A stretch of DNA of 64,000 nt from Psammoneis japonica (taxonomy: Eukaryota), in NCBI GenBank assembly GCA_008632985.1, contig QPGO01000024.1:1-64000 (forward strand). The letters run 5' to 3'. The notes under the pieces are model-generated. The model did not search any database and had not been told where the DNA came from. It saw only the letters and a program-made list of their open reading frames with translations. Both the position numbers and the translations under genes were made by a program. This document shows, one piece after another, positions 2,421-63,720 of the stretch (within the stretch, counting starts at the first letter, position 1; each line of letters starts with the position of its first letter).

Positions 2421-3962
2421 TCATAGCAACCCGCTATAATCGGCTCCCNGTATGCAGTGACGTTTTGAGTCGGCCGTTGAGTGGAATTCTCTTCCAACTT
2501 TATGTTTCCTCGAAAGCCTGCTGCGAGAGCCGCTTGTCCCAACGATTCTTTATTAGCGTTTCTCGGTAAATCATAAACGACGAGTCGACTTTTTGTAGCA
2601 CGCGCCGCAAGCTTTAGGAGATCAAGTCCGTTGATGAAATCACTTCCCCACCCATCCGCAACTTCATCCTTGGGCGTAAACTTTTTTTGAGTCGGTGGAC
2701 CAGACGAGAATGTGTCGAAAAAAATCGTCTCCAACGCCTCCATGAAGATCGTTTTGGAGTTGTTCGTCCTGCTCGCTCTCTTCTGGAACGCCAATATTTG
2801 ACCCGACACAAATCTTCATATGCTTTTCCAGATCATAACCGTCCTTTCCGAGAGTGTTGTAGTCGACGCCGCCCCACGGCGGATCCATGAACACTGCGTC
2901 GATGCGATCGGGTAAGAGATCCAATCCTCCAATTGGATATCCTTCGTGTATTTCCATTTCGGCTTGTGCTCGTCCAGCTTTTGGCTCGCATGCTTCTTTT
3001 ACTCTATCGCCATTCCTGTAGCAGTGCTCCATAATATGCATGGTACTGCATTCCACGAAAATGATCTTGTCTTTTGGAATGTCGTAGACCGCGGCATTGT
3101 GAGCCGCCATTCTGAGCTTTTCTCTATCTACGTCTACTGATACGACCAATGAAATGAATTCACGCGATAGCTTCCCAAACGCAATTGAGTTTCCTCCACA
3201 TCCGCAGAAAGCATCCAATACCACAATGCCTTGGGTGTTGCTTATGTCCGATCCTGGCAAGCCTCTACGAAAGGCGGTGGAATTGCTCAACTCACCTACT
3301 CGAGAGGCTACATGATGCGCAATAACCTGAGGTGTGACAGAGAACCATCCCTCGGCATCCAACTGAATCCCCTGATCAAATCTTGAAAAAAGCCTTCGAC
3401 GCTGCGCCCAGTACTTATCATGCACTACATCAGGGTGCGGATTGGCAATGGAATTATCCACCACCTGCGACTCACATACTGACCAACGGAGAGTGTCGTT
3501 CCCGTCCATCTGGAGCGTATGCTCTCCAGTGGACCGGGGCGCTCTAAGAACGGCAACGGATTGCTCTCTCGAAGAATCGTCGTCAACGACCGGAACCCAG
3601 CAAGAAACGTCTGGTGCAAAGTGATATGGGGCAACATGGAAATGTCTATGGTTTGAATGCTCGTCTCTGTTGTTGTGAGCGTGTTCTTCACCGGGAGCCC
3701 TTGCCGGAATGTCCCACAGTTCAACTCGTTGTGTGATAACTGTCATGTCCGCGGGTGCCTTGTTTCGTTTGCCCTGTTGGTGACCTCTTTGTTGCCGATT
3801 CGGATTCTGCACGCCTCCTCCTTTGTTGCGTTGCGGTGATTTCTTATTCCTAGCCCTATTATTTCTGCGCCGTCGATTGTTGTTGCTAGACTTCGAGCCT
3901 CCACCAGCACCACCACCTGGAGCTAAGCGAGGCGGACTTTTGCCATTGCTGTCAGAACTCAT
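2421..3962 (-). CDS. TGS1: Trimethylguanosine synthase (RNA cap hypermethylase); frameshifts near 2720 and 2450-2485
   Basis: KYWAQRRRLFSRFDQGIQLDAEGWFSVTPQVIAHHVA, VLDAFCGCGGNSIAF, AAHNAAVY and VFMDPPWGGVDY; the C-terminal YDLPRN and LNGRLK motifs follow in shifted frames. Confidence 0.93.
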
Positions 3963-4099
3963 CTTGCTTAGGTCTCGCTTCCCTTTGTCATTGTCGTGAT
4001 ATGTACCGCATTGAGATATGAGAAAAAAAAAAAAAAGTACAGTATCAACGCACGTGTCTGGCCGTCGTTCACGTCACGAAAGACAACGAGCAAGAACAT

Positions 4100-5660
4100 C
4101 ATGACATGCTGTGTGTCAACTCTTGGTGTCGGTGGCATGGCGCTGTGACTCTCCCGGCACTGTAGCTGTGCTCATATTTGGGGAAATAGCATGATTTTCT
4201 GAATTTCACTGTGGTGAAAATTGACAAGCACGCAACAAGCATGGTGGTGCACCAGGGTTTTGTTTCCTTGTCGCCCTCCTCGATGCAGCCTTGTTGGTGT
4301 GCACATCAAAGGCCAAATGTGCACCTTGGTGTGGAGCATGTTTTTGAGCACAGGACAAGCTGCCATCATGGGCAGATTGTCTGCACAAACCATTTTTGTC
4401 ACTTTGAACATGGGGGGCACTGTAAAAGGGTGCCCCTTTTCTTTGACACTTTGTGGCTGTTTCTGAGAGTGCACTTGCGGCGGGAAATGGCAACCACACA
4501 CGCAACTTCTTGCACTGTCATTTCACTTGCAAAAATTCTCTTGCTGTTGTTAAGCGAAACAGTGCATTGTCTCTCTCAGTTTGGCCAGAGTTTGAGAAGA
4601 GGAGCTTGGTCCCCAGTTTCCAGTCTCTTTTGTCTGTCGCTTGAGTTGTCGTCAAAGATTGACAAAAGTGCTGAACAGCAACCTCCACCTCACTGCTGGG
4701 GTGCTGCTGGGGCACCATTCACACAATGGCCCTGTGTGTGCAAAAGAGAACACCCCCAGAGAGAGAGACATGTTTGTTTTGGGCAGCCAAAGGAGGAGAG
4801 GTTGTTGTGGTGGCAGGTTCACAAGAAAGCCGGCTGTCTTTGGGTTGATCAAGCTGCATCATTTTTGTCAGCAAGTGCCACACCATGTTGTGTGTGCAGA
4901 AGGCTTGCAGCTCTGTGCACACAGCGTTGCAGAGAAAACTCTCAGCACTGCTGCACAAGTTTTTTGGCTGTGTTGTGCATGATGTGATTTTTGCAAATTC
5001 CCTCAACCTGAATGCTGATGCACATGTGCATGTAGTGCAGCACATTTTACACAACAACCAGCAGCCCACACAACTGTCAGCAAACACAGCAGGGGCAAAA
5101 GTTGTTGGCTCACTGAGAGAGAGGCAGGCCTCTGCTCCTGCCTCCTGCATCTGATTCAACCACCAGCACACGAGCCAATGGCACCGATGAAGTGAACAAA
5201 CACTGATGCAGTAGAAAGGACAAGCCAACACCTTCTTGTGGATAAGAGTGAGTGTAACAAAGCCAACGTGAACCCAATCGTTGCGCCTTGGTGCATGAGA
5301 TGCAGGCCTCTGCTCCTGCCTCCTGTGTCTGACTCAACCAGCACACGAGCCAATGGCACCGATGAAGTGAACAAACACTGATGCAGTAGAAAGGACAAGC
5401 CAACACCTTCTTGTGGATAAGAGTGAGTGTAATGAAGCCAACGTGAACCCAGTCGTTGCGCCATGGTGCATGAGATGCAGGCCTCTGCTCCTGCCTCCTG
5501 TGTCTGACTCAACCAGCACACGAGCCAATGGCACCGATGAAGTGAACAAACACTGATGCAGTAGAAAGGACAAGCCAACACCTTCTTGTGGATAAGAGTG
5601 AGTGTAATAAAGCCAACGTGAACCTAATCGTTGCGCCTTGGTGCATGAGATGCACCAACA
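4100..5660. mobile_element. Degenerate repeat/transposon-derived block, strongly TpA- and CpG-depleted; family not identifiable
   Basis: Abrupt compositional switch between two normal genes; all frames are Cys/His-rich and Tyr-poor; ends in a 175-bp tandem array. Boundaries are approximate. Confidence 0.6.
5124..5654. repeat. Tandem repeat, three copies of a ~175-bp unit
   Basis: gcaggcctctgctcctgcctcctg starts at 5124, 5302 and 5477; copies are nearly identical. Confidence 0.97.
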
Positions 5661-5844
5661 AGGGTGGTGAGAATGACACGGTCACACAAGTGACGAGGGA
5701 CAGACCACTGCTGGACCACCCATTAATTTTTTGTCTCGTTCCTGGGGGGCGGAAGGGGTGAGGGGTGCAAAACAAAAAGGAAGAAGCGATACTGTAGATA
5801 GAGTTACCATAGTTATCGATCAAGCCCCACTGGTGTCACTCGAA

Positions 5845-7159
5845 ATGGCCAAGGGCACCGCTAAGAAACGCCGTCAAGGCGAGACATGGACTGGAGCGGA
5901 TCATGCAACGCGCAAGGCGACCCAACAAGTCAAACGATCGACGGTCATGTCGTACAAGGATCGACGAGAGGCAGTCCTGGCTCGTGGCTCTCGTGACAAG
6001 ATTGATGCTGGCAAACTAAGACTGCACATTTCCAAGACACAACGTGAGGTGGATCGTTTGCGAGAAAGACTTAGAGCTTGGGATGATGTAGAGGAGGAGA
6101 AAGAAAGATTGTTTCAGCTTGAAAAAGAGAAAAATCAAATAGCGGAAGAACCGTCAAAGAAAAAGAAGCGTGGACGACTTGGACCGGAAACTTGGAAGCT
6201 GCGAGGAGCCGCACGTCCCGCGTGGGAAGTTTATGATTTGACACTCGTTACAAAGACCCACACTTAGTAGAGCATGAAGAACACCAACAAAAGTGTGCAA
6301 GAAGCAGAAATATACTTGTACTCTATAAGGGAAGACTCGGACAAGAAAATGTTGATGGCTTACCGCAGCCGCAAGGGAGAAAATATTTGGCGCTCTTGAT
6401 GCAGCTGGGGATGTTGTGTCTGCAGGCAAAGAAATTCAAGGCTGCTCGGGGGACGTTCTTGGAATGCATGGATTTGGACGGTGCGGATTCTCCCATTACC
6501 ACAGCTCGATGCCAGCTTATGCGAATGTATATGGAAGCAAATCGACCAGACTCGGCACGGCGGTTGTGGGAGCGACTGCCCGACACGGACTCTTCTGTGT
6601 GGATCCGATATTCCGCAGCACTTGTGGAATTCGTCAGTTGGAAGCTACTACAGGAAGAAGGCAGTACCAAGGAGAGCGCAGAAAAGCTTCTGGCAATGCA
6701 ATTCGTGCCAATGTCTTTTGCGCATATTACATTGCGCACCATGAAACATTCGAACGTGTAATGGAATACACAGAAGAAATCCAGGACGCACCGGAAGATA
6801 CGCTCGAAGAAGCTGTTGAATACTGTTGCAGTGAGCAAATGGGGGCCTGGGTCGGTACCGAAGGTGCGATCGAATGGCTTCGACAGATTATCCTTCAGAC
6901 TCTCAATGACGTGCCAAGTAGTCTGGATGGCATTGGTAGTGCTCTCACCGTTCAGGATTTGGATTGGAATAGTAAGCTAAAGAAAATGGAGGATAATTTC
7001 GAGGCATCAGCGAAGGCAGCCACCGAGCAAGAAGCATCGAGAGGAACGGAGAGCGAGGAGAGCGAGGAGCTAGACTTGTTAATGTATACAGGGATGTTTC
7101 GCACTGCAATGGACATGCTTGAAGACGCTGGTGCTTTTGTCGACGATTTGCGGCGGTAG
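5845..7159 (+). CDS. Hypothetical helical-repeat protein (TPR/ST7-like C-terminal half); frameshifts near 6237 and 6696
   Basis: Three ORF pieces join into one coherent protein: MAKGTAKK...WEVYD / DTRYKDPH...AEKLLA / NAIRANVFCAYYIAH...EEAVEYC...GAWVGTEGAIEWLR. The last part resembles the ST7-family C-terminal pattern. Confidence 0.7.
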
Positions 7160-16599: not shown

Positions 16600-19500
16600 T
16601 TCCCTCGTGAGATCGATGCTGTGGGTTTGGTTTTAAGAATCAAATGAGAGCATTTTTAACGCCAGTCGCACCAACAGCTTGACGATCGGTTTTGCGGACC
16701 ACCATGACTCTTTTTGCCAACAGGAAAGATGCAAAAAGTTGGCTCTGAACTTGCATCGAGCAATGCAAGAAACTCTCCACTGGCACTGGTGATGCAGGCA
16801 CTGACGATGCAAAAGCGGCCCAAGATGCCGCTTCGACTGGCGCTCTAGCTCCAAGCAGCTGGGATTCGACAAAAGGGCAGCCACGACTTTCTGGCAGTGT
16901 CAGACTGCAACCAGCCCTCTCTCTCTAGAAGGATGACTCTGTCTTGAGCCATTTCATGTGTAATGCAAAGAAAGGTTGCAAAGAAAAGGGCACTGGCGGA
17001 ACATTGCACAGTTGTGGCTGTGGCTCCACAATTGGCAAGTGACATGTTCACCTCAACCACTGCACTCCCTTTGCTTTGCCCGCATTGCAAAACCACACAA
17101 TGGTTTTAAAACCATGCCTGACATTGAAAACATGTTGGCATCAACTCTTTGAGGTGCATGTTCATTGCCATGCTCTGTCATGGCTGATCACCATCATCTC
17201 TCATCTCCGCACCACTTTGCCAGAGGTGACATGATTGCAGCAAGAAAAGGCAGAGACAAACCTCTGAAGAAAGATTTCATGTCCACCAAACAAAGCAAGT
17301 GTCACTCTTTTTCTGCATCATCCATCATCTGCATGAAGCATCTGCTGACTTGTCATGTGGTGGCCACCAGTGTGGCTGCAAAATGTCATGCTGTGAGAAT
17401 GGAAAGACCCACGAGTGGAAACTGTGCAGGGCTGCCCAAACTCTGTCATTGCATTGTGGCCATGTGTGAGTCCAAAATGAGGATGGGCAAATGCATTGAG
17501 CCAGTTGTTGCATTTAAGCACACAGCAGAGAAAACATTTCCACAACACAGAGAGAAAAAATCAAGCAACAAAGCTTTTGATTGTCTCAGTTCTGCACAGA
17601 ACACATGAAGCAATTGTTTTTGTGGCAGATCTCAAAGTTTGCCAAGTGCAACAAACATGAACAAAAGAGATGGGCTTGCCAATCTGCTGGCCCCTCAATG
17701 GGATGCTCTCCTCCTTTCTTGATTGTCAGTGCAGTGCATCATGCACATCTCTGCAATCAAGCAGGGAGCTGACAAATGCTGTTGAGACATGCACAAAACA
17801 TGCCCTCTGACTGAAAAAACAAAATTCTGTTCACAATGGTGGGGGCTTGGTGCCACACAAACAGGCAGCTGCTTTTTGCAAGGTTCACAAGAATGTGACA
17901 TAAAACCATTGCTGTGCTTGGTGCAAGAGACAAGCGTTCATGCTTCCCTTCCTTGTGGTGTGCTGCAAGTGCTTTTAAAATGCACAACTTTGTCTGTTCT
18001 CAGTGCAAAGCTGTCAAAGCGGCAAGTCAATGTTGCAAAAGGAGGGAGTCCCATTGGTCAGTCACAACAATGGCTGTGGGTTGAAAGTGGTGTTGCTGCA
18101 AACTGTGAATTTGTGTGACAACATGTGCCTGCCAATGCTGAGTGACAAATCATGCAAACCAAATGATTTGCTCCAAAGAGTGAGATGAAACTGAAAGGTG
18201 AGAGATTGCTGACAGTGAAACCTCACTTGTCAAGAGTTGCAAAATGAGCTGCATCATTGGCCACTGCATCTTTTCTTCAACACGTCCAGGTTCTTCACAT
18301 TTCCCACAACCTGGATGCTGTTCCAACAAAAGCATCAAGAAAATTGTGCACACTGCACAAAGCAGCGGAAATTTCACTTGTGCAATGCAGAAGCAGTGCA
18401 CACAGCTGCAAGAAGCCCCCCAGTTGTTGGAGTTTTGCAGCTTGCTAGCCAGCATGCATTTGGTGTCACCAATCCTGAGCTTGCTGTGTGGCTTGCAAAC
18501 ACATTTCTCCAATGCCACATCTGCTTTTGCAATGTCAACCAGGTGCAGAAGGCAAAAGGTCAAAGGGAGCACAAGACCCACAACTCAACCCAAGTTGAGA
18601 ACACAAATCCACCATGTTGTCCACAATCATCAGCACATCTTACACTGCAATGTCAAATGTCCATCCTGCAGAAACTGCCTCTCACCACAATGCACCAACA
18701 CACTCCTTTGCACAAGTCATCAATTGGTTGGCCTCAGGAGGCACATCAAGAAGCATGATGGGAGGATGACACTTGGAAACCATGCCATCCAAATCCACAT
18801 TGACTGTTGTTCTGTCAACTCCTGTGGCCTGCATCACAAGATGACTCTGCCAACAAATGACCACCATTGCTGTTGAGCAAAGCACAACCCCATTTCACAT
18901 GCCCAACCTTGCAACATTTCCATGGTTTGATCTGCTTTTTATCATTCTGCACAAAGCTTGCACTCTCAGGGTTTTTGTTGAAACCACAAGTGTCCAACAC
19001 ATGCAGTGCTGTTGCTGCTCCTTCAATCTTGTGACAAAGGCCTTTGCACAGTTTCCCACAATTGTGTTGAATGCCCTTGCCTTCTGTGTCTTGTAGAATG
19101 TGATCTGTTCACACATGGTGATCACATTGCTTGCCCCAGATTGTCTTGTCCTTCTTCAATGTGGCATCTCCCAATGGACACTCTGGCTCTTTTGGCATGC
19201 TCTCCTGCCTCAGAGATGCCAGCACCTGCATCTCTAGCCCAAACATTTTTCCAACACACTGGTTGATCTTCTTCATGGTTTCTGTGCAACCATCTGCCTG
19301 TGAACCCAACTCAGCAATGGCATCATGCACCCACTCCTTTGAATCGTTTGTGCTTCTGCATCTGGCTTTGTCCTTGAGATTGTTTCTTTGCCCTTGTCCA
19401 CCAACCCAAGTCATGAATGCAAATCTGTCACAAAGTCCACAGTCATCAGTGCATCATGCACTGCAACATTGTCTGTCTGTCCTGCAAAAACTGCCTCTCA

Positions 19501-22500
19501 CCAAAATGTTCCAACAGCACCTCTTGAGCCACAGCAACCTCAATCTTTTCTTTCATCAGCTGCACATTGCATGCAGATGAGTCAAGAGTGAGTTTTTGCT
19601 TGTGGTTTGTTCCCTTTTCTCATTGCCACACCCACATGGCTTCTTTGGCACTGCAGTGGTGATGACTTGTGTGGCTGCCACTGGTGGCTCCACCGCACTG
19701 TCTGGTGCTTCAGCATTGGTCACTGCCCCCAATTCCTCCTCTTTTCAGAGCAGCTCAGCTGTGTAGACTCCTGTCCACCTTTTCTCCAGTTCCTTTTTTT
19801 TTGGAGAAGGGCTGGCTCTGGCCATCTTAGAGGACTCCCGTCCCCATTTGGTTGGCACAACTCTCAAAGCAGCAAGGCAGTGTCTGATCTGATCTTGCCT
19901 CTGATGACACTGCCATGGCAGCTGGATTGTTTAAAGTTGGCAAACAGTCTGGCAAATGCCACTCCAGCACTTCCCACATGCATCCTTGTTGCTCAAAATG
20001 GTGCTCAGCTCTCCCTGCTGTGGCCCATCTGAGTGCTGTGCTGCTCAAGCAAAGCTTGTCATTGGCAAGGCAATTCTGTTGGCTTGGGTGCACACCTCAC
20101 CTTCCTCTGCTGTGGCAGCCACTTGGTCTGACTCTGTCATTGTGGCAGCCTCTGGTCCAAGAGTTGCGGCCACCAGTGCCACCCATGTTGTCTTGCCAAA
20201 GTTGTGGAGTGCAACACGCCCATGCTGAATGCTGGCTCTGGGACATGCTGTGCCTCCATCATCTGCTTCTCCTTGTTGTCTGCCAGCCATGTCATTCATG
20301 CATGACTCATGTCATTCTTTCAGTTCTCTAAAGCTGTCAGACTCTTTCAGTGATGCCTTTGTTGCGTGCACTTTGACAAGACCCAAGCCCTTTCTTGGCT
20401 GCCAGCAGTTCACAGCACCACCCTGGCTGCAGACATCAGCTGCCTTTTGGCTTTGTTTGCAGGCTCTGTCTTTGGCAGTCATGTGGTCCTTGCCCAGAGC
20501 ACTGTGAAGGTGACTTGCGAGTTCCATCCAACCTTTTGGAGGCCCAGGCAAGTGCAAAGATCTGGTGCACTCACCCTCAAATGAGGCCTGAGTGTGCCAG
20601 CTGTTCAGTGTGTGACTTCATCAAATCAGTGATGCAGAGCACTGCAGCCATGCCAGCATCACACATCACACCAATCAGATCCCATCTGCATTGCGCAAGT
20701 GAAAAAATGGATTGGTGCTCTCATGACCAATCTTTTGTTGGCGCTTCACACCCAGAAAAAAGCCATTGCTCTGCAGAAGTCAATGGCAATTTGGTGCTGA
20801 GCTCAGCCAAGACTTTTCTGTCTCCTCAACAGCAATCCCCAACCTCACATTCATGACTGCAGCATTGGTGCAACAAAGTGAATTGGAAGAAACAACTCCT
20901 GTTGTTGTCTCTGCTGAAAGAGGCCCGCGACAATGCTCCAAGTGCTTTCAGCGACAAAAATTGTGGAGTCAACCTTCACCACTTTCCAACAGGCTCAAGA
21001 AGTGCTGGGACTGTAAAACTTCATTGTTTGAGACCAATTTGTTGTTGGGCCAAGTGTGGGTGACTTTCTGAGACTGCCTCATAAAAAAAGCTGACACCAT
21101 CCACCATTTTACTCCAAAAAATGACTGCCTCAACCAAAAGCAAAGTTTGTTGAGGTGGAGTCTGGCTCACATGTGGTTGAGCACAGTGGCAACAAAGAGT
21201 CACTGCAAGGTGTGCTAAAAGAGGTGGGGCTGCCCCCCCCCCCAGCTGCAAAAAAGTGTGCATGGAAAAGATTCCATGTTTTGTGAGTTGCCTGGCATCT
21301 GTGCAGCACAAAGATCATCAATGGCAAGATGTTGAGCAGTGGGAACATGACAACACACACAAACAGCAGTCTTTCTCATCTCACTCTTTTCTTGCAGGGA
21401 GAAACAGGTGATGGCCTCATGCAAAAGGGGGGAAGACCAAAACTTGCTGAGGGTTGGGTTGAAAACAGGCAGCTGCCAAAAATTGTTTCAGAAAGTGTTT
21501 TGAAAGGTGCTCATTCTTGCCACGTCTGTGTGCTGTGCATTGACACCAGTTTTGTGCCAAATGGATGAAGTGTCACTTCTGAATGGAAGCTCCACAACCA
21601 GTCAATTGGCAACAACTGCATGTGTGCTTGCAGGCTCTGTCATTTGCAATCTTCTTTCGCTGGATCAAGATGAGTCTAAGTGCTGCAAGTGCAGGATTGT
21701 CAGTTTGGCCAACATTGCTGTCAAAGCTTTCAGAGCACATGGGGGGCTGGTTCTTCACCAGGTGCAAGAATTGCAGTCAGGATGATTGCCATGTGTTGCT
21801 GGAAGCAACAGCCAGAATTGTTTGGACTTAAAGAAGAACCTGTCATCTGCACACCAGCCAAGAAGCTGTTTGAGTTGAGTGAACAACCCAGGCCACTTGC
21901 ACACTTCATGATGGCAAAAAAAGCAGTGCTGCCATTGGCAATCTCAGCAAAGAAAGAATGACTCAATGGTGGGCAAAGCCTTTTGAAGTGGAGCCCAACT
22001 CATGTGCAGTTGAGCACAACAATGACAAAGAGGAGCCATTGCAAGGAAGACTTAAAGTGGTGCTCCCAGCTGCAAAAAAGGTGAGCAAAGAAAATTCCAT
22101 GCAGCTCCAAGCTGAGAAGGAGTCTTGTCCAGAGCTGCTTGGCATCTGCACAAAGAGTTTCCATTTGCACTGTGTGAGCAAAACAGCAAAGTGTGCAAGG
22201 CTGAACACACAATTGTCTGCTGTCCATGCACTCTTTGGTGAGGTCTGCAAGTGCACCCTTGCCCACCATCTTTTGTGCACCATTGTTGTTGATCATTTTG
22301 TTGAACCATGACCAACATGAGAAAGTGCCGCTTGTTCTTGTTTTGTGCTCTTTCCCTGTTGTGTGCAAAGGATGATGGCTGCAGAAGGGACAGCCAAAAT
22401 CACCAAAGGCAAGATTGAAGACAGCACAAAATTGTCTCTAGAGCATTGGAAGGTGCTCATTCTCACTGCAGGGTGCAAAAAAAGTTTCTGGGAGAGAAAC

Positions 22501-23890
22501 ACCATAAAGAAGGGAGAAGCCACTTTTCTGACAATTTTGCAGTTGCTTGGTCTGGTGAAGCAAGATGCTTTGCATTGCAACATGCCATTGACAGCACTGC
22601 CAAAGCAACCAGCAATGGGCACAATGTGTGTGCTGCAAATGTGCACCAACAGCCTCCACACACCCAAGAGCAGCATTTTAATGTGAAGGTGTGGTGACAG
22701 ATCTGTCATTTTTGTCACAAAAGTCTCTTGAACTTGCCCTTGGAATGCTCCAAAGAAGCAAAAACTGCTGGCTGTCCAGAGCAACTCATTGTCAAACTTG
22801 TCAAAAGCATGGCTTTGCTCCAGTCTGCAACTTTGCACATGAAGGGTGTGTGTGCAGTGCAAAACTCCATTTTTTGTCTTTTGGTGTGCAGGGCGGGGGC
22901 TTCATTGATGGTGGCACTGTGCCACAAAACACAAAAAGTTGCACATTGCAGAGAAAAAGTTGCAGCACTGTTGTCAAGCAACTGGCTGCATGGCATTTTT
23001 CATGCTTTGCAATTTTCCCTCTGAGAAAAGAACTTCAAGTTTGATGTGTCATGCCAGATGCACACAAAAAGCTGCAAAACGTTTCAGAAATCTGAGCTGG
23101 AAAGCACCCCCAACTGACTTTGTGCTTGTTTGCACTCCTCATTTTTGCCAATCACCAGCTGCAAGAAGGTGTTGCTCAAAACAGTCTGCTGGGCATGGCA
23201 GCACATCATGGGCAGGTGAGGCATTCTTCCACCAGCTCAACATGCTGGTGTTCAGCTCCCCGCAATGCATTGCTGGTGACTCTGCAGAAGTTGAAAAGTC
23301 TGGCATCCTTTGAGAATTTTTCTCAATGCTTCGAGCCATCTGCCCCAAGCACAGATGATGATGCACCATGGGCTGGACAACTGCCAAAAAAGTTCTTGTC
23401 ATTCTCCAGGGCACAACACAGAGAAGAACACCAAGCATGAGCTGCTCTGGGGGAGACCTTGGATTCCTGTTGCACATCAGATTGATGGAAAATCCAAGGG
23501 GCAAACCTCAGCAGCCAATGACTTCTCATCAAGGTTGAAGTTGCCACCCCAAAACCACAGCATGGCTTGAGCACATGCAGTGCATGGCAAAGGAGGGAGG
23601 CTGCAATCACGAGTTGCTTGCCAAGGAGGAAGATGCTGTCAAACACTGTTTCTTCCAGCACTTTTTGTTTTTGGTCTTGTGAGTTTGAGTGGCTTGTGCA
23701 TGTCAAGCCCAAAAACAGGACAGATGGACAAGTGGCAAATCGGGCTGTTTTTTTTTTGCTGTGTGCACAACATTTGGTGAAATCAACCTCACTTGCCAAA
23801 GTCAGCAGTTGTCTCTCAATGACATTTGACATCATTGATGACACTGCTGTGATGATCCTCATTGCCTCTCAATGAATTCAGCAGGGCTGT
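16600..23890. mobile_element. Patchwork of heavily mutated transposon remnants (TpA/CpG-depleted)
   Basis: Almost no TA or CG dinucleotides and no credible host ORF. Contains a gag-like fragment, a diverged internal duplication (~18570 vs ~19400) and a possible Copia RT fragment (MNLPLE...IVKLVKSM near 22730-22830). Confidence 0.7.
18880..19400 (-). mobile_element. Ty1/copia-like gag fragment with degenerate CCHC knuckle
   Basis: ETMKKINQCVGKMFGLEMQVL...KEPECP...KTIWGKQCDHHV / KARAFNTIVGNC..AFVTRL / PWKCCKVGHVKWGC resemble the gag of diatom Copia elements once C/H are read back to Y. Confidence 0.5.
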
Positions 23891-23891
23891 C

Positions 23892-24270
23892 TGCAGCGTG
23901 CATTGTCAAGCAGGAAGAAGCACACATGTTCACAACTGCACATTGTTGCACGCATCCATTGCACCACAATCATGGGTGCATGCAAAGGACAGACAAATCA
24001 CACAGATTTGATCAGATGTCAAAAACTGCAAATGCCATCAATCAATGATATTGACACAAAATTTGTCAGTGCTTGTTGCACTGCAATCAGATTTTCTGAA
24101 TGGCCTTTGGAGCAAACGGCACACTTTGGGCCATTGAGAGCTCCTTCAGAGAAATCCAAAATTGCAGCACAAAATCCAATCTCATGGTTTTCTGCTTTTT
24201 GTGATTTGCTCCTCCACTTTCATTTGCACTCATTCTTCAAGCATGGTGCATTGTGTGTGTGCACCACAGA
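23892..24270 (+). repeat. 5' LTR of the gypsy element
   Basis: Aligns by eye with 28582-28990 (shared ttgcaccacaatcatgg, gcaaaggacaga, caatcaatga, gagagctcctt, aaatccaatctca, ttcttcaagca). Confidence 0.85.
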
Positions 24271-27200
24271 AGGCAAAAACACAAAATTGAAGCTTTCACC
24301 TCATGCAACTGATGCCAAGTCTTCTGTCAAGTGAGGGACAATTGTTCTGGTGCCCCTGAAAATGATTTCCAAGCCAAAGTTGCTCAAGTGAACCCAGTGC
24401 CTCAAGATGGAGCAATGTTTTCATCCTGAAGACAAGAAGAGTTGCACCCACACAATCAATGTCAAGCACTGCAACCAGCAGGGAGTCTGCTCCAAGTGTG
24501 TGTCAAATTCTTGAAGACTTGCCGTTGATGCTTGGTTGGCCAGAACATGCAAAAGCAAGCAAACAAGTTCCATCTGATGCAATCAATGTTGAGTGCCACA
24601 ACAAGCAGGGAGTTTTCAAGTGAATCAAATTTTTGAAGACTTGCTGTCAACTTTTGGTTGGACAAAATGTCCAGAAGCAAGCCAACAAGTTCCATCTGAT
24701 GCACATGTTGTTGCAGGGAGATGCTCTCCAAGTTTTTGAGAACAAGGCTGCAAAAACACATTTGCTTCGAAGAGGCAAAGAAGCCTTTGAAAAATGCCTG
24801 TGTTGCCTTTCCAACCATGTTTCCCCCCAAAGAATGCACTTCAAAGTCAGAAACGGCATCTGTGACATGATCTCAAGAAGCCACTGGAGACTGTGAAGAT
24901 CTGCAAAGCTGCCACTTGGACTCAGGAAGGAATGAACAAATGCTCAAAGTTCCACCCTCTTTTTGTGCCAAAGCAAAATCTGGAGGATGAAGATGGTGCT
25001 GTCAGTCAAGCTCACAAGGCTTTAAAATCTTGGATCACACTTTTGACAAGTTGGTTGAGTTCTTGGAGTGTCTGGAAGTTGCTGAGGACACATTTGACTG
25101 GATCAGTGATGTCAAATCTGATCACAACAGCAAGGCTGGGTCAAAGTCAAAGATGGACCTAATTGCGGCTCCAAAAATGGTTGCCAATCTGGTGCCAAAC
25201 ATTCTGATTCTAAGATGTGGTTCAACCATTGCACATGGGCCACTCACAAATGTTGGGTTGATGGAAGACTGGCAAACTGATGCTGAGAGAACTTTGAACA
25301 AAACCCAAAACAGCAATGTTCAAATGGCAATTGCAGGTGGTCTTGCATTGTGGTGCTAAAAATGCCTTTCCAAAGGAAGAGTGGAATGTCATGATCACTC
25401 AGCCAGTCAACAAAATCCTCAAGACAAGTTTCTTGACATGTGACAAAAAGCACAAGGGCAAAAATTCTGACTGTGATGCACTTGGCAAAGAAAACTTCCA
25501 ATTCGAGTGCATGTGATGCACAGTTGTTCTGAAAAATGACCAGCTTCTGTTGAGGAGTCTTGCACATTGCTGGATGTCAGCAAGCCCAGAAAAAGGCCAA
25601 AGCAACTCACACAGGTCCAGCAGTCATTGCTCACATGAACCCCTCTTTGAGAAAAGAGAGGGGTGAGATCCTGCATGTTCTTCTTGATGGTGAAACATCA
25701 TCAACTGCAATTTTGTGCAAATTCACATGGAAATTGAGAACCAAAGAATCCGCCACCAAGATTTGGAAAACCAAGGGTGGACTCTTTGCAACTGACAGCA
25801 AATGCAAAATGCAGTTCTTGTCACCTGAATTTGACAAGCACAAGCACATTGACAAGATGGCACATGCTCATGGCAAGCCCTCTTCTTCATGTTGATGTGA
25901 TGTGATCATGGGACACAACCTGATGAGCAGTCTTGGAATCACACTCAGCTTCACAAATGTGATTGGAAGATGCCACTGCACCAATGAAGAATGTCGGTGC
26001 TTTCTTTGATGCTGATGTCTTCAAGCTGATTGCCAACCACATTGAAGAGTCTGGTGCTGTGAATGGCCTCAATGGCAGGACCAACAGCACCAGGATCCTT
26101 GATGCCAACTGTCATGTTGCCAACCTCAATGATGTGACTGTTGGCCACAGAGACACATCTCACCCCAGGAGAACAGAAGCAACTGAACTCTCTTTTTAAA
26201 AGATTTGAAAAGCTTTTTCACAGTTCCTCAGGTGTGTGGAAAGGAAAACCAGCAGATCTCATGTTCAAATTGGGCATGACTCCACACAATTTGGAGCCAT
26301 TTCCCACACCACAAGCCTTGGAGGCAACTGCTTGAAAGGAAGCAGACCAACTCTATGAGACAGGAGTCTCAAAGAAAAACAATGGACTGCTCTGAATGGG
26401 CAGCTCCAACCTTTGTTCAACCCAGGAAAAATGGTCAAGTTCAGTTCCCACCCAACTTCTAAAGAGCTGAGAGGGAGGCTGGTGTGCACTTCACACACCC
26501 TTTGCCCAATGTTTGGGATGCACTGCAGAAACTGGAAGGTTTCATGCATGTGACCTCATTTGATTTGACCACAAGATGCTGTCACATCAAGCTGACATGG
26601 GGTGCATGTCATTTGTGCATGATGGTGATGCAACGGGGCAAATGTGAATGTTGCGAACTCCTTGTGAGAATTTCCCCCATCATTTTTCAAGAACACATGG
26701 GCAAACTCATGGCAGGTTTAGAGTTTGTCAAAACTTGCTATGTTGATGTCATGCTGTGCCTGACAAAAGGTGACTTCAAAGATCAACTCCAGAAACTTGA
26801 GGAGACATTCACATGGCTCAAACAAACCAGTTTGAAGGTCAGTGCCAAGAAGTCCTTTTCAGCTGAGCATGATGCAGACTGTCCAGGCTTTCATGTCACC
26901 TAAAATGGTGTTGCGCCACCCCCCATGAAAGTGAGGGCAATTCAAGCAGCCCAACTGCAACTCCCAAAACTCACAAGGAGCTGCAATGTTTCATTTGTGT
27001 GGTCAATTGTTGTCAAGACATGTGGCCTCAACAATCTCATGCACTTGCTCTCCTCTTGCCAAACTCACCCAAACAAAGGTTGAGTGGCAATGGATGAGCA
27101 TGAAACAAAAAGCCTTCAACAATGTGAAGTGAGTTGTGTCAAAGGATGTGTCATCATCACACCCAAATTTTGACAAACTCTTTGAGCAGTGTGCCAGGAG

Positions 27201-28581
27201 AGAAAAAAATTCTGAATTGGGAGCAGTCACATCACAAAACAATCAACCTGTTGCTTTCCACAGCTGCAGGTTAAATGGGGTGCAGACATGACACAACACA
27301 ACAGAAAAAACTTCTGCCCATCTTAGAACACTTGAAGGGTTCCACAACTCACTGTTGCCAACAGACAAAAATGTTTGTGGATGACAAAAACCTCACTCAC
27401 AAAAATTTTGCTGTGAACCCAGTCATGCATTGTCATCTGACAATCAAAGAACACAGTCCTAAAATGACCCATCTCAAGGGCACAAGGACAATCTCATTGC
27501 AGATGCAACCAGCTGACTTGCTGTGAAAAACACAGAACCCATGGAAAACCTGAGCAGGGAAGAACCAGATGAGAAGTCACACCAAAATCCTGCAACATTG
27601 TCTTCCATCAATGAAGACACCCTCTTCAAATTGTTGGACAAAACACATCACATGAAGACTTTTCCTGGATGCAAGTGAGATTGAATGCTTGCATGTCACA
27701 AGGACAAAATCACTGGACCAAAGACATTGCAAAAGACAGCAACAGATTGGGGTCATGGTGCACCTTCTGCACCCTGGCACAAACAACGGAGCTGAAAAGA
27801 GGCAATCTCACAACACCTGTGGTGGTCCACCTCACATGAAGACACAAGGAAATGCACATAAAAATGTGAGACATGCAAGCAATTCAAGAAGAAAAAACAT
27901 GCAGACATTTGCCTCCCAAGTGCTCAGAATCAGTGCCACAGAAAAGACCATGTGTGGATCTTGCCAGACCATGCAAAATGCATTGTGAAAGGGCAGAAAG
28001 AATCTGGTGGTCCTCAAATGTTTGACAATGATTGATCCAGCAACAGAACAGTTTGAAACAGCAGAAATCCCAAACAAGGAATCCTTGGCCATTGTTGAAA
28101 GCAGGTGCCTTTGGCCATGGTTGATTGCTTGTGACCATGGAAGTGAGTTCATTGGACACCAATTCAGAGCTGTGGTTGAAGATGACTGTGGCATTGAATG
28201 CAAGCCCACATGCATCCATCAAGTGCTGGGAAACATGCTGTGTGCATGTGATTTACAAAACGCACCCCCAGATGTAGAGGATCCACTCTCTCATGTCATG
28301 CCACAGTGCAAGCTGCACCGTGCCAATTGGTCTTCAACGGAGACATGACATTTGTCATCCAACATGTTGCTGACTGGAAATTTGTCCAGAGACAAAAACA
28401 GGAGATGACAAATGAAAACAGCACTTGAGAAAATGCTCAATGCACTCAATGCCTGCAGGGCAGGAGAAAAGACATTGCTCAAGAAAGACTCTCAAAAGTT
28501 GTGACAGCCCTGTGCTGGGCCTGTCTGTCAAATGGTGCCATTTAAGGACAAGTGGCTCTAACGTGCAATTGGGGAAGCAAA

Positions 28582-28990
28582 TTCAGCACACATTGTTGAG
28601 CAGGAAATGACACACACACATTCACAATTGTGTGTTGTTGGCACGTCAATTGCACCACAATCATGGATGCGTGCAAAGGACAGATCAATCAATCAGATTT
28701 GATCAGCCAGATGTTGAAAACCAGCTCTTGCAAATGAGGTCAATCAATGATGTTGACACACGAGGCATCAATGCTCACCACATTTGGGCAATCTGCCATC
28801 ACAACTGGATTCTCTGAACTGCCTTCAGCTGCAGAGACAGCACACAAATGCTTTGGGCCACTGAGAGCTCCTTTGGAGAAACCTGAAATTGCAGTGTGAA
28901 AAATCCAATCTCACAATTTTTCATTCTTGGCATTTGTTCTGCTTGCTTCATTTGCACCCATTTTTCTTCAAGCACAGTGCATGTCCATCC
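28582..28990 (+). repeat. 3' LTR of the gypsy element, preceded by a purine-rich tract
   Basis: Direct repeat of 23892-24270; ggggaagcaaa at 28571-28581 sits at the polypurine-tract position. Confidence 0.85.
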
Positions 28991-30132
28991 TGTGCCCAGT
29001 GCAATCTGTGGCACAGAGCTGTGAAGCAAGTGCTCTCACATGTGCACCCATGTGATCAACTCACTCTGCTGCTGCTGCTGCTGCTGCAAATTTTGCCACC
29101 TCGCCAGCCCACAAGGACACAACTCACAAAAAATGAGGTCAACACAAAGCACAAAAGCAAAAGAGACAGTCAAACTGATCCTCAGAACTCTGTCCAATGA
29201 AGTGGCACCTGAGTTTTGGGGTGCAGTGCCAAGCATCAAACTCTTGTCAACAGCCCCTCAATGTCGTTTGTGACATGGCCAAGCTTCACCTGATCTGGCT
29301 GAGCACTGCAATTGACGTGGATGCAAGTTCTCCATCTGACACGCTCTTCAGTGCTGCAAGAAGGGTTTGGCCCAGTCGTTTTCCAAAACATGGGTGATGC
29401 CAGTGACAAGCTCAGTGGCTTGTTGGCAACCCAGAATGTGGCAGTCCATGGAGTGCAGCCATTGACCAACTCAAGTCAAAAGACAGTGATCATGGAAACA
29501 TCTCAGCCCAAAGCTGGCTGGAAGGGAGTGTGGGTGGCTTCATTGGCACCAGAGTGATGAGTGACGTGACAGGAAGGGCAACAACCCTTGCAGCCCCCCC
29601 CCAGTGAGAAGGCAGTGCTGGTCTGTCCTCGTGCAAATGCCAGATTTGGTCAAGCTTGACAGCATCCATGCACATTTTGAGACTCAATGCCAACTTCCCA
29701 TGATGCTGGGATGTCCTTTGTGGACGTTGGACCGGGGCGCAGATGCGACTAAAATCACTCGCGCAAATTACAAATTGAAGCGCGTAGGAGAGCATGGAAA
29801 AGCTGAGACCTGATGATGCGGTCAGCGCCGCACTTTCAACTTGGGGTCATTGTGATTGTAACTCTCTGGAAAATGAATGAGCTCCATGGCTTGGTGGTTT
29901 TCTCAGCGTCGCTTGTACAGCAACTTAACTCTGAGCAGGGGCGCTTGCCATCAAACCACGTCGGAGTTCGTCGAGTGCGAGCTAGCAATCAAGTCGTCTG
30001 GAACGCATTTCGATCTGGTGGGAATTTGCCTCACACATCATTGATGAAACACCACAGGAGAGCGGCGCTAACTCTCCTTCGATACCCCCAGTTACCTTCA
30101 AGGTTATAGACAGTAGCGGAGTAGAACGTCGA

Positions 30133-33693: not shown

Positions 33694-34009
33694 GGTGGCT
33701 TGTGGCGGCCGGCGGAAGAATGGCACACGCACTGAACACGCGTGTGTTGGCTGGAGAAGAATTTCGCGCGGAACTCGCGCGTATTTATGTCCCTGGTTGT
33801 GGATGCTTGTTGCGAAGGATAGCGGCGCCGGCCCTCGGAGGAGTCGTCACAACGCTAAAATATGGTACAAGTACAGTACAGTATTCTCTACTCTCGTAAA
33901 AATGCAATGGCTTCGTTGGGGATAATTTTTAATGTTGTTATTCATTCTGTGATACCGTATATATGAAAACCAATCTTTCACTCTCAACGGCCGCAACTGA
34001 TGGACTGAC

Positions 34010-34545
34010 TTGTGACAGACAAGTAAATTTTATTCATAACGTATATGAATAGTTGTCTGTCACAATGGGCATTGTGACAGACAACAATTGTCTGTCACAG
34101 CAACTTGTGACAGACAAGTAAATTTTATTCATAATGTATATAAACACTTGTCTGTCACAACGTGCATTGTGACAGACAAGTAAATTTTATTCATAATGAA
34201 TATAAATACTTGTCTGTCACAGCAACTTGTGACAGACAAGTAAATTTTATTCATAATGGATATAAATACTTGTCTGTCACAGCAACTTGTGACAGACAAG
34301 TAAATTTTATTCACAATGTATATAAATACTTGTCTGTCACAACGTGCATTGTGACAGACAAGTAAATTTTATTCATAATGAATATAAATATTTGTCTTTC
34401 ACAGCAACTTGTGACAGACAAGTAAATTTTATTCATAATGGATATAAATAGTTGTCTGTCACAGCAACTTGTGACAGACAAGTAAATTTTATTCACAATA
34501 AATATAAATATTAGTCTGTCTCAACGGGCAGTTATGAGACCCAGA
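34010..34545. repeat. Palindromic minisatellite: about nine units of 60-62 bp with a 182-bp higher-order period
   Basis: tgtgacagacaa starts at 34011, 34073, 34106, 34168, 34228, 34288, 34350, 34410 and 34470. Each unit is TGTGACAGACAAGT - AT-rich core - ACTTGTCTGTCACA, an inverted pair. Confidence 0.97.
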
Positions 34546-49649: not shown

Positions 49650-50449
49650 GTCTATCGAATCATATCATAGAATGAAATGACGAGGAATATCAAGTGGCTT
49701 TGTGCACGACGTTTTAGATACAAACATAATACACAGTAGGATGAGTAACTAGTTGTATAGAAGTAATATCCAACCAAGCAAACAGATTAACCGGGATGTC
49801 CTAGAGTGCCCTTTTGCCGGGTACCGCCAGCTGGGCGTGGGCACAAGCCGTTTCACAAGGGTCTCGGTGCGAAGTGTTGGAGGCTTTTTAAGAAGGAGTT
49901 TTCACTCTGATCTATTCTAAGTAATGGAATGTGAGTGGTAGATAGGCTAGATACACGAAATGAGAGAGAATACAGCAGGCAACCGCTTGCTTTCCGTCCC
50001 AGCTCCGTGATACGGTAGATACCACGTGTAAAAATTAACCCCCCGTTTTAAACCAAATACCCACCTCGATCGTCTAATAGTATCCAGATACAAAGTTCTG
50101 CGCACTTTTGGGGGCCTAGAAGGGGGTGAACGTTTGTTACGAACCAATCACTGCAAATTGAATCTCGCACTTGCCCGTGTAATAAAGGTGATCCACGAAA
50201 AGTTAGTTCAATTTTGAAATACCAGATACCATGAGCAATACATACCTGTTACATTCGCGCAAGACATCGGTTTAAAGAGTATGAGACCGCTAATGCTCAT
50301 ATCTTGTGTATTTTGTGCTCTGGCAGGGGTCAAAGTCTAGCAGCTAATTCTACCGGCAAGAAAAATGTTGAGTCGAATGGATCATGCGGGATTCAAGACA
50401 CGTGACTCGCTGTACGATGAAGTGTTGCCGTCGCCCTGATTCATTCTAC

Positions 50450-52690
50450 TTGGGACTCTTTCGTCCAAGAAGAAGGCTTTGCTCAAGGTTGCCCTCTTGG
50501 CCCCATCTTCGCCAGCCTTGTCCTCTTGCTTGTCCTTCATCTGTCAATCAAGAACTCCGTGAACGCATCCCCGGCCGCTCTCCTGCTTCCGTCGGCTCCT
50601 GCGTTGATGGTGCCCACGCTTTCTTCCCTCACTCTGTTCTCCCATGGTTCTTCGAACGTTTCTCCACTCTTGGCACCCCCTGCGGCATCACCCTCCTCAA
50701 CCTCTGTAAAACTAAGATTCTCACATCCATCACTGGTGTCAGTCCCATTTCCCACCCTTCCTCCTTCCCGGGCGGATCCTCTCCGCGCCGCTCTCTCCCA
50801 TCTCAGCAACCCTGCGAATGATCCTTCCTGCACCTCGGAACTCACCTCCGGTGTCTGCTTCCTTGGTCAACCCCTGGGCTCCCAAGACTTTGCTGACTCC
50901 TTCCTCTCTGCCACCTCTTCCACCCTCTCCAACAAAGTCGGCATGCTTCTCACCCGCCTCCATGACAAGCAAGCTCAAGCACAGCTCTTCAAACACTGTT
51001 TCGCTCCTTCCTCCACTCACCTGCTTGGCACTGACTTCCACCACAACCTCAACCCTGACAACCCTCCTGATCCCTTCCTTGGGACCTCCTCCTTCCAAGA
51101 CTCTCTTGTCACCACCACTCATCGATTTCTCCACTGCGCTGCCTCCCATGCCGCTCCTCTTCCCGGCCATTCTCTTGCCATTGCCTTCCTTCCTGCTTCG
51201 CTCGGAAGCTTTGGCCTTCAAGACCCAACAGCTGCCGCTGTTCCATCATTTATGGTCTCTCTTCTTTGCTCCTTCTGTTTTGCATTCCATGGTGTCCAGC
51301 TGCCATCAGGTGTCGCCGTCGCTCTTCCTCGCAGCTTTCGGCTTTCTTTGTCTTCTTGGCACAATCCCCACTCGATGCTGTGTCTCTGCCTGATCTTTTG
51401 CTGCTGCGCTCCTGTTCTTGCCTCTGCTTCCACTCTTTCTGCCTCCTCTCTGACCACTCTGGTTAAGTCGGCTGCCCTTCCTGGCCTGGCCCACGATCTC
51501 CATCATGACCATCAACAGCAAGTCATCACTTCTGCTCTTGTCAATGCTCCCTCCAACAATCAAGTCTCCCCACCCTCACTGCTGTCTCCACTTGCTGGCC
51601 TTCCTCTTCATCCCCATTTCCATTGCTTCAAGAGTTCCTGCCTTGCTTCTGATGCCTGCATCATTGCCACTCAGCACAAGCTCTGTCTTCCCATCCTTCC
51701 CTCCTCTCTTGTCAACACACCCTGTCCCTGTGGCCATGCCACCCTTGATGTGCCTGTGGTGATCACGCCTTCTCCTGCAGTTGTGCTCACAAATCCAAGC
51801 TTTCCAATGGCCTCCAAGACACCCTCTTCATTGTCGCCCAGACCTTGGGACCCCCCGCCCAGCTCTGTCATTCTTCCAATGACGTGCACCTCAATCCCAC
51901 AAATCTGCTCCCTGCCTGTGCCCACTCCACCCTGCCAATGTCAGCATTTCCATCCTGCCTCCCGCCTCTCTCTCTCTCTCTCTCAGCTCCTTCCCACCAT
52001 CACTGTGTTGCAGTTGATGCAGCCATGCCCCAAGATCCCTCTTGCTCTCCTCCTGGTCTGCCTGCCCCCTCTTCCCCCACATTGACTGAGGCACACTGTT
52101 CAAGCCCGAGATTGAAGTTTCTTGGCCCTTCCGCTCCCTCCACTGATGAACCTCCAGTTGTTGCTTCTTTCAATGCCAATGGCATCTTTCTCCTCCCTTT
52201 TGCCATTGATCACCTTGGCGTTCTTGGATTCTTCACTCACCGGCTCCTTTTTGGCTCCACATTTTCCTCCGTCTGCTCTCAACCCAAGCCTCCCTGGTCC
52301 TCTTCACCCAACCTTCACCACTCAAATGTTCCTGCTCTGCCTTCCTCTGTGCCCTGTCATCTCCATCTTCCCTTCTCCCATCTGCTGACTTTGCCAGGTG
52401 CGGCCTGCCCACCAAGTGCCTCGGCAGCACATGTTGCACCGCCTCTCCTTCTCAATGGGCTGTCCACACCCTCAGATGCAACATTGTTCTCCACCTCTCC
52501 ATGCATGCTCTCTGCTTTGCCTCCTCTCTCCCTGCCCCCTCCTCTCCCATTCCCTCTGCCAAACACCCCACGTCCTGCATTTTGCACCCACTTCACACTC
52601 TGCCATCACTGCAGCTGCTTCCATGCCTCCTTCTGCTGTTCCTTTCCACTCTGCACAGGCTCTTTAACTCTGCATGCCAGTGTAAATTGA
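50450..52690 (+). mobile_element. 5'-truncated non-LTR retrotransposon of the RLE (CRE/R2-like) type, degenerate
   Basis: FVQEEGFAQGCPLGPIF (RT QGxPL), SCVDG (YxDD site), KTKIL, GVCFLGQPLGSQDF, LPASLGSFGLQD, CPCG..LD..GDH.F.C knuckle, and FLLPFAIDHLGVLG (restriction-like endonuclease end). Confidence 0.85.
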
Positions 52691-63500: not shown

Positions 63501-63720
63501 ATCACACGAACGGGTGCAATGGCGCGGCGTGTCAGCACAAAACTCGGCTCGCTGCCGTTCGCTGACAGCCCCTTTGCAGCCCCAAATGAAAGGTGGCACA
63601 ATCAGCCTGCTCTTGCAACGGGACTCGAAACAACGAATGTTTAGACACCTTGTCTGCCGCGTCAATGTCTTCGTCGGCTCCGTCGGTTTTTTTGACCAGT
63701 TTGGCGTGTACGTGCGTGTG
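60500..63720. mobile_element. TpA-depleted repeat DNA with degenerate ORFs; probably the rest of the same large DNA transposon
   Basis: Protein-like but broken frames at 60882-62047 (+) with no Tyr; TpA nearly absent while CpG is largely retained. Confidence 0.5.

Follow-up and report, generated by a model that had tools for sequence, protein, structure and literature searches.

How can three nearly identical tandem copies come to read TA, CA and TG at one and the same position? The question is raised by a 175-bp repeat in a 64,000-nucleotide stretch of Psammoneis japonica DNA (contig QPGO01000024.1 of assembly GCA_008632985.1, positions 1–64,000 of the forward strand; hereafter the window), for which an initial annotation, made from the letters alone, had proposed an ancestral TA that mutated independently on opposite strands after duplication. 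The array adjoins a block in which nearly every TA and CG is missing, a context absent from that annotation, and the differences between the copies of the array appear to be a small local trace of a larger feature: blocks where conversion to CA or TG has removed almost all TA and CG, one of them containing a dead retrotransposon. The array is probably a young 175-bp triplication that straddles the edge of such a silenced block, with its TA and CG dinucleotides decaying to CA or TG.

Tandem Repeats Finder identified a single array at 5119–5654 (period 175, 3.0 copies, 95% matches). Copy borders and columns were taken from a MAFFT alignment of the three copies, numbered c1, c2 and c3 in their order along the window:

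5124–5301: tandem copy 1 (c1), 178 bp with an extra ACC at 5159–5161; CA at 5148–5149, CA at 5258–5259, CA at 5275–5276
5302–5476: tandem copy 2 (c2), 175 bp; TG at 5326–5327, TG at 5433–5434, CA at 5450–5451
5477–5651: tandem copy 3 (c3), 175 bp; TG at 5501–5502, TA at 5608–5609, TA at 5625–5626

The copies vary at eight columns, seven of which are transitions (positions and letters in the order c1/c2/c3):

5148/5326/5501: C, T, T
5149/5327/5502: A, G, G
5155/5333/5508: T, C, C
5258/5433/5608: C, T, T
5259/5434/5609: A, G, A
5275/5450/5625: C, C, T
5277/5452/5627: A, G, A
5288/5463/5638: T, A, T

Three sites are of interest, and the letters given for them in the initial annotation match the alignment exactly. 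Site A (5148–5149/5326–5327/5501–5502; tgCAt/tgTGt/tgTGt) reads CA, TG and TG, site B (5258–5259/5433–5434/5608–5609; gtaaCAaag/gtaaTGaag/gtaaTAaag) reads CA, TG and TA, and site C (5275–5276/5450–5451/5625–5626; aaccCA/aaccCA/aaccTA) reads CA, CA and TA, while five CG and three TA dinucleotides per unit are unchanged in all three copies. The occurrence of two adjacent pairs among eight variable columns of 175 has a P-value of 0.035 (0.32 pairs expected, 200,000 draws). The unit is non-coding, because 175 is not divisible by 3. No further copy of it was detected within the window (blastn, word size 7), an exact 24-mer from it matched 0 metagenome contigs, and in the 16 metagenome loci related via the protein encoded downstream no similarity to the intergenic region was found, and thus no outgroup for the unit. 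The Rfam search of 3900–5900 (E≤10) returned 8 matches, all far under the gathering scores, which does not support an array of structured RNAs or small nucleolar RNAs. An RNA helix pairing the two CA/TG sites was considered and rejected, as the covariation is same-sense and not complementary.

The blocks were delimited by a two-state hidden Markov model (HMM) on TA counts and characterized by dinucleotide counts per kb. Four of them, together about 26 kb, have observed-to-expected ratios (O/E) of 0.05–0.09 for TA, 0.09–0.41 for CG and 1.6–2.0 for CA and TG:

4188–5211 (HMM 4201–5200): intergenic block of about 1 kb; TA O/E 0.06, CG 0.21, CA 2.0, TG 1.76; 4 TA and 11–13 CG
16701–29700: block of 13 kb with sharp edges; TA O/E 0.05, CG 0.09, CA 1.76, TG 1.99; 45 TA and 65 CG
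50501–54400: block with TA O/E 0.09 and CG O/E 0.36 (CG partly depleted)
55101–63700: block with TA O/E 0.05 and CG O/E 0.41, including a gap of Ns at 55125–55509
Normal segments: TA O/E 0.59–0.60, CG 0.96–1.05

The loss of TA is near-total, with 0–6 TA per kb across 12 kb. The total of pyrimidine-purine steps is practically the same in normal DNA (239.6 per kb) and in the blocks (238.0 per kb), and the other 12 dinucleotides barely shift; with this constant total and the gain of CA and TG, the blocks look as if transitions only had turned the CG and TA of normal DNA into CA and TG. The scarcity of TA leaves the blocks nearly devoid of Tyr codons and of TAA and TAG stops, and they therefore contain long, spurious open reading frames (ORFs) rich in Cys and His, such as that at 4241–4987, which spans 248 aa without a single Tyr. 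The footprints of the two losses do not coincide. At three block edges (16658–16997, 50448–50950 and 63323–63709) the TA-poor zone outruns the CG-poor zone by 200–400 bp, and between 50.5 and 63.7 kb TA is depleted more strongly than CG (0.05–0.09 versus 0.36–0.41). These differing edges and the unequal depth of depletion favor two processes over one. TC and CC are not depleted in the blocks, and strand-coordinated clusters of the APOBEC type are not supported. Most of the block sequence is single-copy within the window, and the ORFs of the blocks other than the one holding the retroelement described below match 0 Pfam families at E≤0.001.

The block closest to the array, 4188–5211, enters the left half of the repeat unit, and the right half of each unit has a normal TA density (3–5 per 87 bp). 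Because the block ends within the unit, the triplication copied a block edge three times.

Two side observations concern the block sequences. The region 50501–63700 shows a strong excess of C over G (GC skew from -0.16 to -0.36 at 50–58 kb) and many long plus-strand ORFs; within it, segments 54345–54383 and 55520–55558 share a purine/pyrimidine pattern and flank, at unequal distances, the gap of 385 Ns (55125–55509), where the assembly was probably joined across a repeat. Separately, one of the related metagenome loci (L012, positions 1–1000 and 3500–5992) has a CG O/E of 0.07–0.21 with normal TA (0.48–0.72), i.e. decay of CpG only, and serves as a contrast case.

The direction of the decay can be read from a retroelement within the 13-kb block:

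23894–24251, plus strand: putative 5' long terminal repeat (LTR), which aligns with 28584–28982
25479–28440, plus strand: decayed pol of an LTR retrotransposon (reverse transcriptase, then an integrase-like part), with Tyr and Arg codons converted
28584–28982, plus strand: putative 3' LTR

The ORF at 26463–26900 matches RVT_1 with an E-value of 3.9e-6 and 27.2 bits, slightly below the cut-off of 29.6. An exhaustive search with the relic reverse transcriptase identified 465 homologs at E≤0.001; a word-indexed protein search in the 'longer' mode scored 0 of 381 candidates, and the best match in the PDB sequence search, a foamy-virus reverse transcriptase, reached only E 0.34. The intact homolog P0123 (1004 residues, 4.5% Tyr) aligns over residues 3–941 with 25743–28440 (tblastn, E 1.35e-78), and residues were compared over 791 aligned positions. 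Only 1 of the 37 Tyr residues of P0123 is kept in the relic, with 11 replaced by Cys and 9 by His (20/37 in total), as against 18 of 22 Phe residues kept (P = 1.9e-10 for the contrast). Likewise, Arg is kept at 2 of 37 positions (5 became Cys, 5 His, 4 Gln, 4 stop and 4 Lys), as against 33 of 65 for Lys (P = 1.1e-6). Four more intact homologs agree with this, and at eight positions with a consensus Tyr among 150 homologs the relic has H, H, C, C, C, C, Y and C, i.e. His or Cys in 7 of 8. Cys and His are the one-transition products of TAY codons, and Cys, His, Gln and stop are the products of CGN codons converted to TGN or CAN. The conversion of Tyr and Arg codons thus polarizes the changes: TA to CA or TG, and CG to CA or TG. 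The same signature is found elsewhere: among the reverse transcriptase homolog domains from public assemblies, 14 of 110 have at least three His or Cys residues at Tyr positions, and several have no Tyr at all. The Tyr-free homologs from the ENA and JGI assemblies (P0139, P0140, P0142, P0155, P0165, P0170, P0172 and P0262) carry His or Cys at conserved Tyr positions. Such Tyr-poor domains in other assemblies indicate that the footprint exists outside the window.

Duplicated sequences within the blocks date the changes. The two LTRs differ at 71 of 354 aligned bases, and 12 CA/TG doublets, in which one copy has CA and the other TG, account for 24 of the 71 mismatched bases; 33 pairs of mismatches are adjacent versus 14 expected, and 0 of 20,000 permutations reached 33. 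As LTRs are identical at insertion and these now differ by doublets, the changes postdate integration. Of the other internal duplicates, two have 6 and 2 CA/TG doublets, respectively, and doublets are also present in a fourth pair (20987–21355 with 21806–22188), the sole extra pair revealed by a search for hidden paralogs with k-mers coded as purine/pyrimidine. All internal duplicates in the TA-poor blocks thus carry CA/TG doublets.

Sequencing reads extend this record to alleles. The reads comprise three runs from one sample of one study, and their Logan contigs were placed on 4300–6700; the read sample X1 is possibly the assembly's own source, and hence not independent of the window. The genome is heterozygous and diploid. 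A second haplotype carries TG to CA changes at 4332–4333 (depth 32.6/64.4) and 4811–4812 (32.4/72.2), and, at about half depth, CG to CA at 4832, CA to TA at 4860, T to C at 5155 and T to C at 5326, while for 5327 no change is listed. The CA/TG doublets between haplotypes, 300–800 bp from the array, match the pattern inside it, and the T to C change at 5326, with none listed for 5327, is read here as a CG that the other haplotype carries at site A in one of its internal copies.

The X1 contigs over 5228–5325 (the c1 states and the c1/c2 junction) and 5578–6698 (the c3 states, TA at 5608–5609 and T at 5625) show 0 differences at depth 55 and 0 substitutions at depth 58, respectively, and 0 substitutions were found in the contigs over 4434–4781 and 4752–4918, in the TA-poor flank. 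Among the contigs listed none spans the array, and the states specific to c2 (5433–5434, 5452 and 5463) fall in bins of depth 12 and 0, which are uninformative. Two places differ from the window. An extra T after 6236 is present in contigs of both read sets (58.1/58.1 and 22.7/22.7) and joins the ORF at 5845–6267 in frame with that at 6399–6761, which indicates that the window carries a one-base consensus deletion in the gene of the tetratricopeptide-repeat (TPR)-like protein downstream of the array. At the left array junction (5110–5123) the sole X1 contig differs at full depth (60.2/60.2), with T to C at 5114, two bases absent at 5115 and A to G at 5122, so that it has CG where the window has TG; this is either a length difference in (GA)n or a consensus error.

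What, then, was the ancestral state at the three sites of the array? At site B, the proposal of the initial annotation stands: TA alone is one step from both CA and TG, and TA to CA/TG is the change seen in the blocks. Independent decay of an ancestral TA in c1 and c2 is expected 0.24–0.72 times, the path from CA through TA to TG 0.025–0.038 times, and the observed pattern under background mutation alone 0.0014 times, so that the rough expectation for the TA ancestor exceeds that for the CA-TA-TG path by about 10–20 fold. At site A, for which TA had likewise been assumed, a read contig shows CG, an observation that the initial annotation had itself named as refuting, and the ancestor was probably CG, judging from that contig. 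At site C, where TA had also been taken as ancestral, T at 5625 is found only in c3, and a new CA to TA change is about as likely as two parallel losses of TA. The further suggestion that the copy nearest to the gene keeps its TAs draws on numbers too small for a test: of 5 TAs in c3, 0 were lost, and of 10 in c1 and c2 together, 4 were lost; retention of TA in c3 by nearness to the gene is plausible nonetheless, because c3 holds the only right half that is not enclosed by block sequence. The initial interpretation thus survives as a class of events, a self-complementary dinucleotide hit independently on either strand after duplication, exemplified by site B with its TA ancestor, while CG is likelier at site A and site C can be read either way. 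If TA and CG are taken as ancestral throughout the array, 7 changes fall on 66 bases of these dinucleotides and 3 on 459 other bases, a 16-fold excess (P = 3e-5). By our arithmetic, a ratio of about 16-fold also brings the older LTRs near their observed loss, and given this similarity, array and old relic could reflect a single process seen at two different ages.

The model that we favor can be outlined as follows. The array would be a young tandem triplication upstream of the gene of a TPR protein in a diploid, diatom-like genome, and the neighboring block would be silenced DNA, probably derived from transposons. In such blocks TpA would change to TpG or CpA (A to G on either strand), and CpG to TpG or CpA (C to T on either strand), both far above the background rate. 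Either decay would erase a self-complementary pyrimidine-purine step, which may be called a hub, and leave CA or TG as a sink. With either strand liable to be hit, copies or alleles would lose the same hub independently, so that one ends with CA and another with TG, and a copy that escaped would keep the hub. Accordingly worded for the three sites, 5258/5433/5608 would be a TA hub retained in c3, 5148/5326/5501 a CG hub retained in the other haplotype, and 5275/5450/5625 either a retained or a newly made TA. The chemistry may be deamination of adenine to inosine at TpA, as hypothesized for Bigelowiella natans, together with deamination of 5-methylcytosine at CpG, and both decays may be targeted by the silencing of foreign or repeated DNA. 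A bolder version, which we regard as doubtful, is that diatoms possess a chromatin-targeted defense mutator that acts on either strand at the A of TpA and the C of CpG, wears transposons and viral insertions down to DNA free of TA and CG, and spills into nearby repeats and promoters; such a mutator could possibly be one DNA deaminase system with dual specificity. The Tyr-free reverse transcriptase relics of environmental assemblies are consistent with it, and if it were true, then together with the case of B. natans it would suggest that TpA-directed DNA editing is old and widespread in the group of stramenopiles, alveolates and rhizarians.

Several other explanations were weighed against this model. 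The array could be the product of ordinary neutral divergence of a young triplication, the coincidence of CA, TG and TA being due to chance and unrelated to the blocks. Only eight columns vary, with the modest P-value of 0.035 for their two adjacent pairs, transitions dominate everywhere, nearly half of all positions lie in CA, TG, CG or TA steps, all copies share five unchanged CG and three unchanged TA per unit, the HMM returns to the normal state from 5201, and site 5625 fits a background CA to TA change. We nevertheless consider it unlikely, as background mutation predicts two hits on one dinucleotide only 0.0014 times, the same doublets separate the haplotypes 300–800 bp away and occur in every duplicate of the blocks, and the array abuts a block with a TA O/E of 0.06. 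Decay of CpG only, with all three sites once CG and the TA of c3 reached by two successive C to T changes, would be in keeping with the CG at 5326–5327 in the read contig, the CpG depletion of the block, the converted Arg codons of the relic and the report that in Phaeodactylum tricornutum no dinucleotide is more mutable than CG (PMC6604790, as far as its available text goes). It is very unlikely, since it takes 3–4 steps at 5258/5433/5608 versus 2 from a TA ancestor, would raise TA whereas its O/E is 0.05, gives no account of Tyr replaced by Cys or His at 20 of 37 positions, and does not fit the TA depletion that exceeds that of CG at 50.5–63.7 kb and outreaches the CG-poor zone at three edges.

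Very little credit can be given to two explanations that place the cause outside DNA decay in situ. Selection could make the blocks avoid TA and CG through a constraint on transcript or chromatin, like the avoidance of CpG and UpA in RNA viruses; many viral and cellular RNAs are described as poor in both dinucleotides (PMC3829696, from the part available). Yet a depletion down to 0–6 TA per kb over 12 kb is near-total, the pol reading frame is destroyed, with Arg turned into stop four times and conserved Tyr lost, and the depletion arose independently in the two LTRs after insertion, all of which makes selection highly improbable. Editing before integration, i.e. an ADAR-like hyper-editing of retroelement RNA that was then inserted already TA-poor, with the array unrelated, is improbable to the same high degree: editing of double-stranded RNA would indeed give TA to TG and TA to CA, and a 5' U preference is mentioned in the available text of bioRxiv 10.64898/2026.01.13.699255, but 12 doublets separate the two LTRs of a single insertion, the TA-poor block measures 13 kb versus about 5 kb for the element, the doublets between alleles and tandem copies arose in place, and the loss of CpG is left unexplained. 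An artefact of assembly or of base-calling at modified bases could be suspected from the one-base error of the window at 6236 against both read sets and from the differing X1 contig around 5114–5122, but the X1 contigs match 4434–4781, 4752–4918, 5228–5325 and 5578–6698 with 0 substitutions, including the states of c1 and c3, and this explanation is the least credible of all.

The decay of TA and CG hubs at the edge of a silenced block has to face some contrary points as well. The pattern in the array is real but weak if taken alone, with eight variable columns and an adjacency P of 0.035, and the action of the process on the array would follow from four lost TAs and one lost CG site, while the HMM classes the sequence from 5201 onward as normal and the right halves of the units have normal TA density. 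The CG at 5326–5327 comes from one row of one contig table, the 16-fold figure assumes that hub states are ancestral, and at site C a new CA to TA change in c3 is expected 0.47 times versus 0.24–0.72 for two parallel losses. Along the blocks, CA and TG follow one another at random (same-neighbor fraction 0.494–0.504, z from -0.7 to 0.3), consistent with independent hits on either strand at each hub, and this lack of strand runs gives no sign of a processive single-strand deaminase. A foreign origin is established for 23.9–29.0 kb only, and none of the 16 related metagenome loci contains such a block. Finally, the mutation-accumulation lines of P. tricornutum are reported to be GC to AT biased with CG the most mutable, and the accessible text mentions no TpA effect (PMC6604790).

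The array is intergenic and lies between two divergent genes:

2664–3962, minus strand: RNA cap guanine-N2 methyltransferase-like gene (PF09445, E 1.9e-22), divergent, upstream of the array
5845–7159, plus strand: gene of the TPR-like protein, downstream of the array, with its ATG 194 bp past the array end

The TPR-like protein has relatives in 16 metagenome loci, with 34–55% identity over longer stretches and 81–86% in short best segments; a Protein Atlas search with the first exon of its gene gave best scores of 0.78–0.79, which are uninformative. An Hsp70-family protein of the window has its best named matches among diatoms, such as Attheya, Seminavis, Mayamaea, Amphora, Cyclotella, Chaetoceros and Pseudo-nitzschia, at about 50–57% identity, and other matches reach up to 62% over most of the query; the source is therefore described here as a diatom-like stramenopile. 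A separate array, located between two genes in normal (not TA-poor) DNA at 34008–34530, consists of eight units of 60–62 bp, in each of which an AT-rich spacer comes after a 12-bp inverted repeat (TTGTCTGTCACA ... TGTGACAGACAA), with a higher-order period of 182 bp; at one position of the spacer, six of the units have TG, one has CG and one has TA. This array may serve for protein binding.

The triplication, the LTR pair and the two haplotypes constitute records since duplication, insertion and allelic divergence, respectively, from which the relative rate can be read (about 16-fold over background in the array), and the question is testable in a cultivable alga. A practical consequence is that blocks free of TA and CG mislead gene finders and conceal transposons from homology searches.

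Comparison with known systems places the CpG component on familiar ground. Transposons of diatoms are described as CpG-methylated by DNMT5a (PMC9998398, in the part available), and the decay of methylated CpG resembles the present case in the depletion of CpG with an excess of TpG and CpA in transposon-derived DNA, where Arg codons CGN are indeed found converted to TGN and CAN. That process spares TpA, and the L012 locus, with CpG-only decay and normal TA, represents its ordinary form. Diatom DNMT4 is possibly related to the RID enzyme of fungal repeat-induced point mutation (RIP), according to the same portion of text (PMC9998398). RIP, too, is restricted to transitions, specific to dinucleotides, active on both strands, sharply bounded and able to inactivate transposons; it makes C to T changes mainly at CpA and so enriches TpA, whereas here the TA O/E of 0.05 and the CA/TG O/E of 1.7–1.85 are the opposite. 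In primate comparisons, CA/TG double substitutions proceed through a short-lived CpG intermediate. These share with the present doublets the adjacent double transitions via a hypermutable middle state; the difference is that TA also acts as a middle state here and that doublets make up about one-third of the mismatched bases in duplicates (24/71 in the LTRs).

The closest known case by analogy is the TpA hypermutation of B. natans, a rhizarian chlorarachniophyte, in whose mutation-accumulation lines changes of TpA to TpG or CpA in integrated viral and transposon sequences were measured (Mettrop et al., bioRxiv 10.64898/2026.01.13.699255, here and below as far as its available text goes). The targets are integrated DNA of nucleocytoplasmic large DNA viruses (NCLDV), virophages and transposon-like elements, and a DNA adenine deaminase is the proposed cause (bioRxiv 10.64898/2026.01.13.699255). 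Both systems show A to G or T to C changes at TpA giving TpG or CpA, seen here as Tyr replaced by Cys or His. Clustered 1-kb segments depleted of TpA and enriched in CpA and TpG are described there, and the blocks have this same composition; the effect is sharply local in both, and reverse transcriptase domains are enriched among the TpA-poor sequences of B. natans. As to the viral or transposon origin of targets, the window has an LTR retroelement at 23.9–29.0 kb and 0 Pfam families in the other blocks. The differences are that the rate was measured directly in B. natans while here the process is deduced from sequence, that depletion there is mild (TpA rho 0.45 in the NCLDV region) versus a TA O/E of 0.05, near saturation, here, and that the available text of the preprint never uses the word CpG whereas CpG is lost here too. 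No report of TpA decay in diatoms was found in our literature searches, and directed TpA to TpG/CpA hypermutation of foreign DNA is represented, in the literature found, by this one 2026 preprint on one chlorarachniophyte. To it the window adds a second, distant host lineage, a diatom-like stramenopile whose footprint reaches a tandem repeat next to a gene; a saturated end state, with 45 TA and 65 CG left in 13 kb; a direction polarized by the Tyr and Arg codons of a dead retrotransposon; and the decay of TpA and CpG together, with footprints that overlap and are not identical.

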